Counted from the stretch's first letter, positions 57,471 through 62,249 are shown. The stretch is 64,000 nt of DNA from Alphaproteobacteria bacterium (GCA_041287865.1 JBGGMV010000037.1:4614-68613); one strand, 5' to 3'. The notes: generated from the sequence alone by a model not told the origin. Program-made: numbers and translations.

Positions 57471-60400
57471 TTACGGTTTTGGCGCGGGCGGCCTTGGCGC
57501 CGCAGGCCTTTTTTCGGGCGCCGCGCCGCCTGCTGCGGCAGCGCCCCTGGCATGGCCCGCATGGAACTGCGACTGCCCCGGCGCGGGACCGCCCTTGAAT
57601 TCCCGCACTTCACGCTTGAACAGCTCGATCTCGCGCAGCGCCCTGCGCAGCTGGGCGGCTTCTTTCTTCGCGTCCTCGATCTCGCGGGTATTGAGCCTGC
57701 CGCCGAAGAAGCTTGTCACCGCCGCGATCTGCAGCACCGGCTTGCCCGCCTTGATCAGGTCATCGTCCTTTTTAAGCTTCCTGTGGATCGCGTCCTCGAA
57801 AGCCTTGAGGTTTTTCGGGTTGGTGAAATCGACCTCGCGCAGGTTCTTGATATGGCCGTCGGGCGTGCGCGACAGTTTTCCGTCTATGGCCTGCGTCGGC
57901 GTGCTTTTCAGCACATAGGCAACGGCGGGCAGGGTCTTGAAATGGTAGATCGAGGGCTTGACGGGCGCGGGCTTCGGCTTGTCGAGCTGCTGCTGCAAGA
58001 GTCCGACCGCGGCTTCGCCCAGCTGGCGGATGCTGGATTTTTCAGGCGCGTATTTTTCGCCGACGGTGCGGACCGTCAACTCGCGCACCGCTTCGCGCGC
58101 GGCGTCGCCAGCGCCAAAGCCGAAAAAGCCGGCCGCCGTTTCCGCCACTGTCGCCACGGCCTCGGCACCCGCCTTGCCGTATTCGCCTTTGTACAGGTGC
58201 GAGCCGACGTTATAGGCCCCGTACCCGAAGCTCACCACGCTGCCGACGACCGGGATTTTCCGGCTGACAAAGCCCGCGGCCTTCGCAAGGGGCGCCACTT
58301 TTCGCGTAAACGACGCCACCGCTTTGTATGTTTTGGGCGACAAGGCGACGTCGGTGAGGGCGCTGACGGTCGCGCCCTTCACGTCGCCCTGCGCCAGCTG
58401 CAGGGCGATCGACGCGCCGCTGGTCGCATGGCCGCCATGGCGGTCGAGCTTGGTGCGGACCCCGCCGATGCGCGAGACGACGCCCGGCTTGGCAGCGCCG
58501 CCGCCTGATCCCGCCTGCGGCGCGGCCGCCTTGCGCGGTTCGGGGGCTTCTGGTTTCGGGGTGGGCTTGGGCGGCGCCGCAGCTTTCGGCGGCGCGGCGT
58601 CAGCCTTGGGCGGCGTTTTGCGCGGCGCAGCGCCACCGGCATCGCCGTCCGAATCGTTTTTCGGCGGCGCGGGTTTGGCGGCAGCGGGCTTCGCGGCTGG
58701 TTCTGCTGCGGGTTTGATCTCCGGCTTGGCATCCGGCTTGAACACAGCGGCGGGATTTTTCGCGCGGGCAAGGTCGACGTCCCGCGTGGCAATATGGTCA
58801 AGTTCCGCGCGCGCGACCAGCTTCACGGGTTCTGCGCCCGGCACGGCCTCCGGTAAATGTTTTGCGAGCGCGTCGGATACGTCTCCCGCGCCCACCTCGT
58901 GCCCCACGCCGTCGAAAACGGCCAGCAGGACGCTCTTGCCCTGCAGGTCGGTGTTGGTGTCGAGCCGCAGCACAGCCGCTGTCGTGTTATCCTTCGATCC
59001 CAGCGCGGTCGCGCGTTCCGACAGGAAACGGGAAATATCCGCCGTTTCCGGATTGGATTTCAGGTGGGCTTCGAGCTCGATCCCGAGCGCTTCCTGGAAG
59101 CTCTTGCGCGTATCGCCTTCGCCCCGCGCCGGGCTCTTCGTATAGCCATCGATGACGCCGTCGGAAATATTGATGACGAAAGCCTTCTCGCCGGCGGGTA
59201 TATCGATGCTCTTGGTCAGCATGAAATTCCCGCCGCGCTGCGCGCCCTCGCCGAAGCCGGTTGCGCCTTTCATACTGGCCGGCGCCTTCAACTCCTTGCC
59301 GTTGACGTCGTAGATCGAGACGTTGTTGTTGGCGTCGACGCTGGCGATCAGCGTGGTTGAATCGCCGCGCAGACCGGCCACCAGATCAAAAGACGCCATG
59401 CCGGGCTGTTTCGCCTGTTTTTGCGTGATAGCGGCAAGAGAGCCCGTGGAATCCTTGTCGTAATCGCCGCCCGCCGTCGCATTGCCGCGATCGCTGAGCG
59501 AATCCATGATGCGGCCGAGCCCTGCTTCATCGATGGGTGTTTTGGTGGTGACGACGGCATAGGTATCGGCCTGACCCGCGTTGGGTACCACCTTGCCGTC
59601 GCGTACATCCACGCCGGATGTCAGGTATGTTTCGACAACGGCATTGCCCGCCGCATATCTTTCGATGACGTCCCTGGGCAGTTGGGGCGCCTCCGGCACG
59701 ACAGGTTTTAGCGGCGCTTTCGTGCGCAGCTCTTCCGCCTGCGCGGTCACGCGCGCCTCCGCCTCGGCCATCAGCGAAGGCTTCGCAAGCTCGGGCGTGT
59801 CCACTTTCGTGGGGTTGCGGACGATGAATTCGGCCTGCGCGACGTAATCGGCCCTGCGGTCTGCATCCAGCAGGCGCGCGGCAAGATCCGGGGCGCCGGC
59901 TTCGCGCGTCGTGCCGTTCAGGCGGTTTTCGGGTCCGGGCGCGCCGACCTGCAGCCTGTCGGGGCTGGAATATTTCGTCGATTGAAGCTCGATCGGCGTG
60001 CGCACGGTCTTGGGCTGGCCGTCTTCGCCCAGCACGGGCACGGGGTAGCCGTCGGGGCCCATGATAACTTTGCCATTCGCATCGCGCTCGACGATAACGG
60101 CCTCGACCTCGCCGCCGGAAAGGCGCAACAGGTCCAGCGGCCTGTCTTTTTCATCCTTCGGCGGGGGCACGAAGACTTCGGGCGCGCTGTTTTCGACCCA
60201 GCCCATGCGGTAGGGGCCCTTCTGGTAGAAACTGTCGGCGACGACATATTTCGCGGGGCCGCCGTCTCCTGCGAAGCGCACGACGTTGTGCATATGCGTT
60301 TCGATGGTCTGCGGCTTGCCGTCCGCCGCCGCGACGAATTTTCCGTCTTTCGTCATCAGCGGATTGTATTTATCCGGCACCTCGACCGCCGCGCGCACCT

Positions 60401-62249: not shown

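Follow-up and report, generated by a model that had tools for sequence, protein, structure and literature searches.

A 1592-residue modular fusion protein of a probably Micavibrio-like alphaproteobacterium, read as a putative membrane-targeting effector

The gene described here occupies positions 57471 to 62249 on the minus strand of a 64,000-nucleotide (nt) stretch of DNA from an Alphaproteobacteria bacterium (GCA_041287865.1, JBGGMV010000037.1:4614-68613), which was analysed at its full length and is called the window below; its product of 1592 amino acids (aa) is referred to as the giant. Single-chain AB toxins are among the closest described proteins in build: diphtheria toxin is ordered C-T-R, the large clostridial toxins are ordered GTD-CPD-delivery-CROPs, and the MARTX toxins also belong here. 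The giant resembles them in the order of its parts, with one or more enzymatic heads followed by a helical/hydrophobic insertion region and a C-terminal, sometimes repeated, domain comparable to a binding domain, and in the presence of a Cys-His-Asp domain within a giant toxin-like protein. It differs in that no sequence or fold match to these toxins was found and its hairpin is weakly hydrophobic, and its Cys-His-Asp domain belongs to a widespread TPR-linked family and is not an autoprocessing CPD. The interbacterial effectors of Xanthomonas-type type IV secretion systems (T4SS), termed X-Tfe, carry a C-terminal XVIPCD. They are similar to the giant in carrying variable N-terminal heads on a C-terminal module that is conserved, and in having genes dispersed one by one over the chromosome; the giant differs in having no shown homology to them, no T4SS in sight and no adjoining cognate immunity gene. 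Polymorphic toxin systems include papain-like Cys-His-Asp toxin domains and ankyrin-type immunity proteins (PMC3482391). Like them, the family of the giant displays a cassette-like shuffling of domains on a constant module, and one protein with the same hairpin module carries a WHH/colicin-DNase head and is encoded beside a SUKH immunity gene. Unlike them, the giant has no N-terminal trafficking domain, the C-termini of such giants vary between membrane-type modules and not between toxin domains, and no conserved immunity gene lies beside the giant, which has a stable locus and a slowly evolving core. The hemolysin-related RTX proteins of Micavibrio aeruginosavorus are likewise large, come from an epibiotic predator and are presumed to act on the membranes of its prey (PMC3189940), but the giant has neither the RTX GGxGxD repeats nor an identifiable type I secretion system (T1SS) signal.

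The giant is read, with confidence that is about evenly balanced, as a lineage-restricted fusion that acts as an exported, membrane-targeting multi-enzyme effector of a Micavibrio-like alphaproteobacterium, its export being putative. This reading is favoured because of the cassette behaviour of the family, a module relative that lies in a toxin/immunity setting, a C-terminal domain able to occur in repeats, and a loss of cysteine that is linked to the C-terminal module. The open reading frame (ORF) is the longest in the window (the second longest has 925 aa), and the following parts are distinguished in it; the evidence is given with each, and P0002 and P0034 denote two of the relatives.

57471..62249, minus strand: whole giant gene, 1592 aa plus stop codon, ATG start
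61272..62114, minus strand: predicted TPR-S / MAP3K_TRAF_bd-type alpha-helical repeat, aa 46-326 (AF2 model, Foldseek, homology via P0034)
60645..61112, minus strand: helical middle region of the core, aa 380-535 (invariant columns; DKMQFLEV, LEDLHGxDHKIYD)
60171..60638, minus strand: Cys-His-Asp domain, aa 538-693 (GxGDCR ... ExH ... DxFY)
60579-60581, 60294-60296 and 60234-60236, minus strand: codons of the triad residues C557, H652 and D672, respectively
59739..60170, minus strand: beta-rich end of the core, aa 694-837 (the core stops here in all relatives)
58743..59684, minus strand: divergent domain with supported PPM/PP2C fold, aa 856-1169 (GQxD, RGDS, SDG, DNTT, displaced FDGxGH)
58470..58742, minus strand: disordered Pro/Ala/Lys-rich spacer, aa 1170-1260 (composition; predicted local distance difference test score, pLDDT, <40; 43% identity to P0002)
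57960..58448, minus strand: Gly/Ala-rich helical hairpin ("zipper") module, aa 1268-1430 (common to proteins with other heads)
57588..57956, minus strand: C-terminal domain, aa 1432-1554 (YKxLP..VLKSTP..RTPDGxIKN..PKN, then a coiled-coil helix)
57474..57587, minus strand: basic Gly/Ala/Pro-rich tail, aa 1555-1592 (composition)

The first-pass annotation of the window had described its largest gene as one uninterrupted frame, not assignable to any housekeeping family and built of modules joined by linkers. The frame and the modular build were borne out; the proposed cut points (aa 1-340, 340-700, 700-880, 880-1140 and 1250-1592) were not, the true boundaries being different. Scans of the whole giant and of its segments against Pfam, NCBIfam, PADLOC and PDB sequences gave nothing except low-complexity matches, and no family could be assigned here either. 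The helical N-terminal third, the putative Cys-His-Asp segment (C557/H652/D672), the PP2C-like segment, the Pro/Ala/Lys-rich linker, the coiled-coil and the basic Pro-rich C-terminus of that annotation were all recovered.

Close relatives of the giant are rare, nine being found among 5.8 billion protein clusters, all labelled hypothetical. A scan with two core peptide patterns was positive in 2 of the 185,579 species representatives of GTDB and negative in all others. This phyletic distribution, the survey of which had been proposed with the first-pass annotation, is informative on the source, since one of the two positive genomes, that of the closest relative, is titled "uncultured Micavibrio sp.". 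The source lineage is thus probably Micavibrio-like, and a predatory lifestyle may be presumed for this metagenome-assembled genome (MAG). The cultured members of Micavibrio are epibiotic predators of Gram-negative bacteria and kill their prey by contact (PMC3189940). The lineage is related to predators of bacteria and is not an established symbiont or pathogen of eukaryotes, as the earlier suggestion of a host-associated bacterium would have it.

The first ~835 aa, termed the core, are common to all close relatives, and the sequences diverge beyond this point: the core is kept and everything after it is swapped, with two unrelated types of Gly-rich hydrophobic C-terminal module. In the paralogues P0006-8 (type B) the whole C-terminal part is replaced by another Gly-rich hydrophobic module and long helices; one of these, P0008 (ACAH80_12090), shares its MAG with the window gene (ACAH80_06320). 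Homology between the hairpin module and the type-B module was considered and rejected, as none was found on testing. A profile search with the hairpin module recovered ~21 further proteins. Four to five of them consist of a stand-alone PPM-like domain, spacer and module, with an N-terminus that matches the giant at aa ~856, so that the giant arose by gene fusion; by sequence comparison it is an ~835-aa core fused to a PPM-like and hairpin-module protein, plus the C-terminal domain. One such stand-alone protein is a paralogue in the MAG of P0002. The other N-terminal heads found on the hairpin module are a WHH/colicin-DNase nuclease, a DUF6782 metallopeptidase, an isochorismatase and a RamC_N/OspF-SpvC-like (lyase-like) domain. 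The gene for the WHH nuclease member (P0026) directly follows a SMI1_KNR4 (SUKH) gene, and a nuclease toxin with SUKH immunity is a classical pairing (PMC3113570, PMC3482391). Hairpin-module genes stand singly among housekeeping genes, and neither the window nor the relatives' fetched flanks contained extra copies of the three key modules (Cys-His-Asp domain, hairpin, C-terminal domain).

Two further loci of the family were recorded. On a JGI 3300047160 contig an orthologue is split between the catalytic Cys and His into two ORFs, P0009 and P0033, which could reflect a frameshift, a pseudogene or a sequencing error; it has an additional N-terminal HD/PDEase_I-like head, a strongly hydrophobic segment and three tandem C-terminal domains. 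In a Micavibrio-like MAG (L008/L009 11808-18005) a stand-alone PPM-like and hairpin paralogue is followed by two TPM_phosphatase genes, two ankyrin (Ank) genes and one EF-hand gene, so that genes for small proteins of eukaryote-like or signalling type are grouped there.

The strongest single argument for the putative export is the depletion of cysteine. The other 30 genes of the window encode 0.75% Cys. For the giant 11.9 Cys would be expected, but C557 of the Cys-His-Asp domain is the sole cysteine among the 1592 residues (P = 8e-5). In the module and PPM-like proteins P0010-31, which total 10,028 residues, 3 Cys occur against 75 expected (P ~ 1e-28), and nine giants together have 24, with 98 expected. 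Where the core stands without a C-terminal membrane module, as in 84 relatives, the median Cys content is 0.87%; in the cores of the giants it is 0.12-0.36% (P = 6e-5). Since cysteine is low only in the module-bearing members, its loss accompanies the gain of the C-terminal unit. Scarce cysteine is typical for proteins that are exported unfolded or via an oxidising periplasm, and the purge favours an exported, membrane-targeting effector. The passengers of autotransporters are also described as poor in cysteine (PMC9769942).

The C-terminal unit consists of the hairpin module and the C-terminal domain and is preceded by the spacer, which over aa 1165-1260 is composed of 28% A, 24% P and 14% K. 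The hairpin module is a conserved two-helix hairpin. In the C-terminal domain a coiled-coil helix is present in the model at aa 1520-1553, and the C-terminal third of the giant is basic. The C-terminal domain has no relative among PDB sequences. It occurs in three tandem copies in P0033, and by analogy such tandem copies may resemble binding domains. As far as testable, none of the three key modules has a Pfam model or a PDB-sequence match.

The core is ancestral and two-part, combining a TPR-S-type repeat with the Cys-His-Asp domain. The AlphaFold2 (AF2) model of the core has a pLDDT of 67, with aa 46-326 helical at 80-90, and structure searches with the whole core model (Foldseek against PDB and BFVD) returned TPR/solenoid proteins only. 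The giant itself does not match Pfam TPR-S or MAP3K_TRAF_bd at E <= 0.1, nor at E <= 10 when the segment is isolated. Its aa ~50-477 are collinear with residues 13-434 of P0034 (independent E-value 4e-26), a stretch that Pfam calls MAP3K_TRAF_bd/TPR-S. Of 67 relatives scanned, 31 have Pfam TPR-S and 26 have MAP3K_TRAF_bd upstream of a ~140-aa unit that corresponds to aa ~538-677 of the giant. On this collinearity and these calls the N-terminal third is assigned by homology as a TPR-S-type repeat whose own Pfam score lies below threshold. The repeat is thus related, through intermediate relatives, to TPR-S (PF20308) and to MAP3K_TRAF_bd (PF13281, the central TPR of ASK1); it differs from them in its sub-threshold score and in being coupled to a Cys-His-Asp domain.

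An exhaustive HMMER search with a core profile built from a trimmed alignment, run against 1.84 billion representatives, yielded 124 clusters at E <= 1e-3. The ~140-aa unit recurs in more than 80 clusters, including proteins of 2,500-5,000 aa, and the helical part recurs alongside it; in the 2,500-5,000-aa proteins TPR-S/MAP3K_TRAF_bd and the unit have the same arrangement. The middle region and the TPR part recur together in distant relatives (profile positions 130-475), and the core alone is widespread as proteins of ~700 aa. These recurrences show the core to be a composite of the ~140-aa unit and the helical part. The supradomain of TPR-S and Cys-His-Asp occurs in over 100 protein clusters, and neither Pfam nor PDB contains it; no entry with a TPR-S-type repeat fixed to such a domain was present among the libraries searched, and a literature search on "TPR-S" in a limited collection found no paper. 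All core relatives looked up by cluster are metagenomic proteins, and 72,556 annotated plasmid records, searched by tblastn with a core relative and with the C-terminal 338 aa, gave no match.

The Cys-His-Asp domain is the most conserved module of the giant (89% identity to P0002). Among 114 domain copies D556, C557 and R558 are conserved in 100%, G555 in 99%, E650 in 97%, and H652, D672, F674 and Y675 each in 96%; in the 35-sequence alignment A8 the three triad residues are all invariant. In the model C557 lies at the N-terminus of helix 557-588, H652 inside strand 647-659 and D672 just past strand 667-670, with a local pLDDT of 50-82, a layout that suggests with modest confidence the geometry of the papain/transglutaminase clan. 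YopT/AvrPphB, OspI, Tox-PLC39 and LapG are papain/transglutaminase-clan Cys-His-Asp enzymes that serve as effectors. The giant agrees with them in the residue order Cys, His, Asp (PMC3482391) and with the clan in the placement of Cys at a helix N-terminus, His in a strand and Asp after the next strand; its C-H and H-D spacings, 95 and 20 residues, are similar to those of OspI. It differs in lacking a sequence match to any Pfam or PDB family: the 35-sequence domain profile found no meaningful match among Pfam and PDB sequences, and the whole-core structure searches gave only TPR matches, the TPR repeat dominating both. The domain is read as an undescribed cysteine-dependent hydrolase or transferase with putative chemistry. 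With 124 representative clusters at E <= 1e-3 it is a sizeable TPR-S-coupled family with a clear catalytic-looking signature and no description, and knowledge of its chemistry would add to what can be read from many genomes.

Three weak independent tests agree on a PPM/PP2C fold for aa 856-1169, and the assignment is supported for that reason at the level of the fold, though without a Pfam match. The model blocks of this segment reach a pLDDT of 80-94, and Foldseek places PPM phosphatases at ranks 1-4, 6, 10, 13 and 34, the highest being PPM1K, PPM1B, a Toxoplasma PP2C and PDP1 (best E = 3e-3; the first four have a probability of 0.93-0.99). Alignment with hhalign of a 7-sequence profile to Mycobacterium tuberculosis PstP, the sequence of which was entered by hand and not taken from a database, gave E = 9e-4 and paired RGDS, SDG and DNTT with GDSR, SDGL and DNVT. 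In a PDB profile search 14 of 18 sub-threshold matches were PP2Cs (best E = 0.023). The motifs of the segment are invariant in 8 copies. The Pfam models PP2C, PP2C_2 and SpoIIE did not match at E <= 10, with either the native or a re-ordered sequence. The PPM/PP2C phosphatases (PPM1K 4da1/6ak7, PPM1B 2p8e, PstP, SpoIIE) are thus the best structural counterparts of the segment, and its RGDS, SDG and DNTT are collinear with their metal-site motifs; it differs from them in a displaced motif 2 and in the absence of Pfam recognition. The canonical motif-2 position (DGxGGH) is not conserved, and a motif-2-like LLAVFDGVGH occurs after the DN motif instead, which HMMER pairs out of order with VLAVFDGHGGHE of CaMKP. 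A circular permutation is plausible, which may make this segment one of the rare permutants of the PPM fold that occur in nature. De-permutation in silico was uninformative, hhalign scoring 31.3 for native, permuted and most control constructs alike.

In the proposed mechanism the C-terminal unit would bring the giant from the cytoplasm to a target membrane, to lie on it or in it, much as the parts for translocation and binding do in single-chain AB toxins, and the N-terminal heads would be the payload. The TPR repeat would pick the target protein, the Cys-His-Asp domain would cleave or covalently modify it by papain/transglutaminase-type chemistry, and the PPM-like domain would strip phosphate groups. 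The conserved catalytic-looking residues of both enzyme-like domains lend support to an effector, as do the Micavibrio-like lineage, gene neighbourhoods rich in Ank, EF-hand and Sel1 genes, and the lack of a match to known defence proteins. Because of the Micavibrio-like lineage, the target cell would more probably be a bacterial prey or competitor than a eukaryote. The molecular means by which epibiotic predators such as Micavibrio kill and drain their prey are largely unknown, and cysteine-free proteins with swappable heads and a common membrane-active tail are a candidate effector set and delivery module. A wider joint reading is doubtful: that a new Cys-His-Asp family on a TPR-S/ASK1-type sensor has been weaponised by Micavibrio-like bacteria with a permuted PP2C fold and a cysteine-free self-delivery unit made of the Gly/Ala hairpin and the repeatable C-terminal domain. 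On this reading interchangeable N-terminal heads (nuclease, peptidase, lyase, phosphatase) would be delivered to prey as reverse-polarity polymorphic effectors with their own export/translocation route.

The immediate neighbours of the gene bear on the weighing of these readings and are as follows.

56898..57470, plus strand: 190-aa ankyrin-repeat gene (Ank190), convergent with the giant, of uncertain association
62250..62558, between the divergent genes: giant/bcp intergenic region, both promoters probably inside
62559..62990, plus strand: bcp/PrxQ-type peroxiredoxin (longer ORF reading from 62499)
62992..63813, minus strand: second Ank gene, 273 aa, 743 nt upstream of the giant's start

Several observations weigh against an exported effector. 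The maximum of the Kyte-Doolittle hydrophobicity averaged over 19 residues (KD19) is 1.12 in the giant's hairpin, below transmembrane grade, compared with a borderline 1.5-1.8 in many relatives, so that the hydrophobic glycine-zipper stretch noted earlier is present but weak. No signal peptide or trafficking domain (RTX, PAAR, VgrG, Rhs, TPS, LXG) was found in the giant. Hmmscan of the giant's immediate neighbours and of the window's ten largest genes found no secretion-system genes, and none appeared in the stored Pfam annotations of the relatives' fetched loci. The sole genome-analysed member of the genus Micavibrio is reported to have T1SS and type II (T2SS) but no type III (T3SS) or type IV systems (PMC3189940). 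The polarity is reversed relative to polymorphic toxin systems, the variable heads being N-terminal and the constant module C-terminal, and no immunity-like conserved neighbour exists, the convergent Ank gene being missing from orthologous loci. The models behind both enzyme assignments are of moderate confidence (pLDDT 67 and 57), and the E-values are weak. In other lineages the core is combined with signalling-type partners, namely NUDIX, HATPase_c, HD and NAD-binding domains. The type-A family members adjoin the AhpC/TSA (bcp) gene in five genomes (the window, L003, L005, L014 and the P0009 contig), all else being different. Between genomes the Bcp identities are 89, 72 and 56% and those of the giant's core 80, 62 and 58%, which indicates strong purifying selection on the core. 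The stable locus, the native codons and a core as slow as Bcp resemble a resident function more than an arms-race toxin. A conserved housekeeping protein in the same synteny in relatives had been named beforehand as evidence against an effector; the synteny is found, at the bcp locus, but a known housekeeping protein is not. Of the translocated effector or toxin proposed in the first-pass annotation, the modularity, the cassette swapping, the WHH and SUKH relative and the cysteine purge speak in favour, whereas the association with ankyrin genes fell away and a secretion system or signal was not found among the window genes examined or the relatives' flanks.

Some of these observations suit a different role, tentatively considered as the best of the alternatives though unlikely, in which the giant is an intracellular membrane-tethered signalling or stress/redox hub. 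The hairpin would anchor it to the cell's own inner membrane, TPR-S would sense a ligand or partner, C557 would be a redox-sensitive or catalytic switch, possibly fed by Bcp, and the PPM-like domain would dephosphorylate a signalling protein. The bcp linkage kept in five genomes fits this role, as does the shared divergent promoter region of ~250-310 nt; so do the missing export signals and a core as conserved as Bcp. Pfam describes TPR-S as a sensor repeat, its relative MAP3K_TRAF_bd is the TPR of ASK1, the wider family joins the core to signalling enzymes, and PPM phosphatases are usual parts of bacterial signalling. ASK1 is redox-regulated via thioredoxin and peroxiredoxin. Such a hub would leave unexplained the limitation of the cysteine purge to module-bearing members, the WHH nuclease and SUKH gene on the same hairpin module, and the cassette swapping of heads and tails; and the hairpin is barely hydrophobic in the giant.

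An effector directed at a protist or amoeba as its eukaryotic host, delivered in a T4SS-like manner via the basic C-terminus and acting with the flanking ankyrin proteins, is improbable. The neighbourhoods of family members are rich in Ank, EF-hand and Sel1 genes, and together with the PDEase_I-like head, a weak OspF/SpvC-like match and the ASK1-type TPR in or near the family, the basic C-terminal third and the cysteine-poor protein, this would be in keeping with a eukaryotic target. T4SS genes were not seen in the window or in the relatives' fetched flanks, as far as examined, and the Ank matches to Legionella effector models are repeat-level only and far below the cut-offs. The label Micavibrio denotes a predator of bacteria, and the relative with WHH and SUKH points to bacterial targets. 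The ankyrin neighbours are also not conserved. Both had been located correctly beforehand, Ank190 as convergent with abutting stops at 57470/57471 (the gap is zero, with TAA/TTA at 57468-57473) and the second about 0.7 kb upstream beyond bcp; the bracketing as an association did not hold, as Ank genes are not kept at orthologous loci and bcp is the conserved neighbour. Ank neighbours are limited to the window's own contigs; the paralogue P0006, which is followed by a small convergent Ank gene, is the exception. The idea that Ank190 is a conserved partner was rejected, since outside the query's contigs it has only a 28% repeat-level match.

Still less probable is a component of intracellular conflict or anti-phage defence, in which TPR-S would sense an invader and unleash the Cys-His-Asp and PPM-like effectors and a membrane-disrupting hairpin, leading to abortive infection. 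TPR-S is named as a sensor repeat, a hairpin could perturb a membrane, and the heads of the module relatives are typical effector enzymes. The giant is nevertheless not a known defence protein: PADLOC models matched neither it, nor the core relative P0034, nor four module relatives. An NTPase or another partner gene is missing, and the gene lies among housekeeping genes and not in a defence island; the stable chromosomal locus speaks against it as well, and the cysteine purge would be unexplained.

An assembly artefact or a decaying pseudogene of chimeric pieces, for which only the split of the relative P0009 + P0033 into two ORFs could be cited, is effectively refuted by the identical 1592-aa protein in three independent assemblies (NCBI MAG contig, locus tag ACAH80_06320; ENA contig L001; Logan contig L002), a full-length orthologue at 68% identity, the conservation of every module and the native codon usage. 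The GC content at third codon positions (GC3) of the giant is 0.81, matching the neighbour genes, and the raised overall GC of the region results from its Ala/Pro/Gly-rich sequence.

Minor observations concern the surroundings of the gene. A terminator-like hairpin with a T-run lies at 57488-57503 on the plus strand, just past the Ank190 stop and inside the 3' coding end of the giant. On the P0006 contig (JGI 3300047160) there is a weak Imm42-family match two genes upstream and a 200-aa convergent Ank gene directly downstream, mirroring the window. In the 273-aa Ank protein a long tail of low complexity, acidic and rich in Lys, Ala and Pro, is similar to the spacer of the giant. A 675-aa protein encoded at 15747-17774 on the plus strand consists of ankyrin repeats almost throughout, and a 352-aa Ank gene lies just outside the window (L001 159-1217). 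Together with Ank190 and the second Ank gene, this brings the number of Ank genes to at least four within ~70 kb that are otherwise made up of housekeeping genes. A DUF6714 ORF of 206 aa (52622-53242, minus strand) has a GC3 of 0.45, compared with 0.75-0.85 in its neighbours, and may be a compositionally foreign, recent acquisition.

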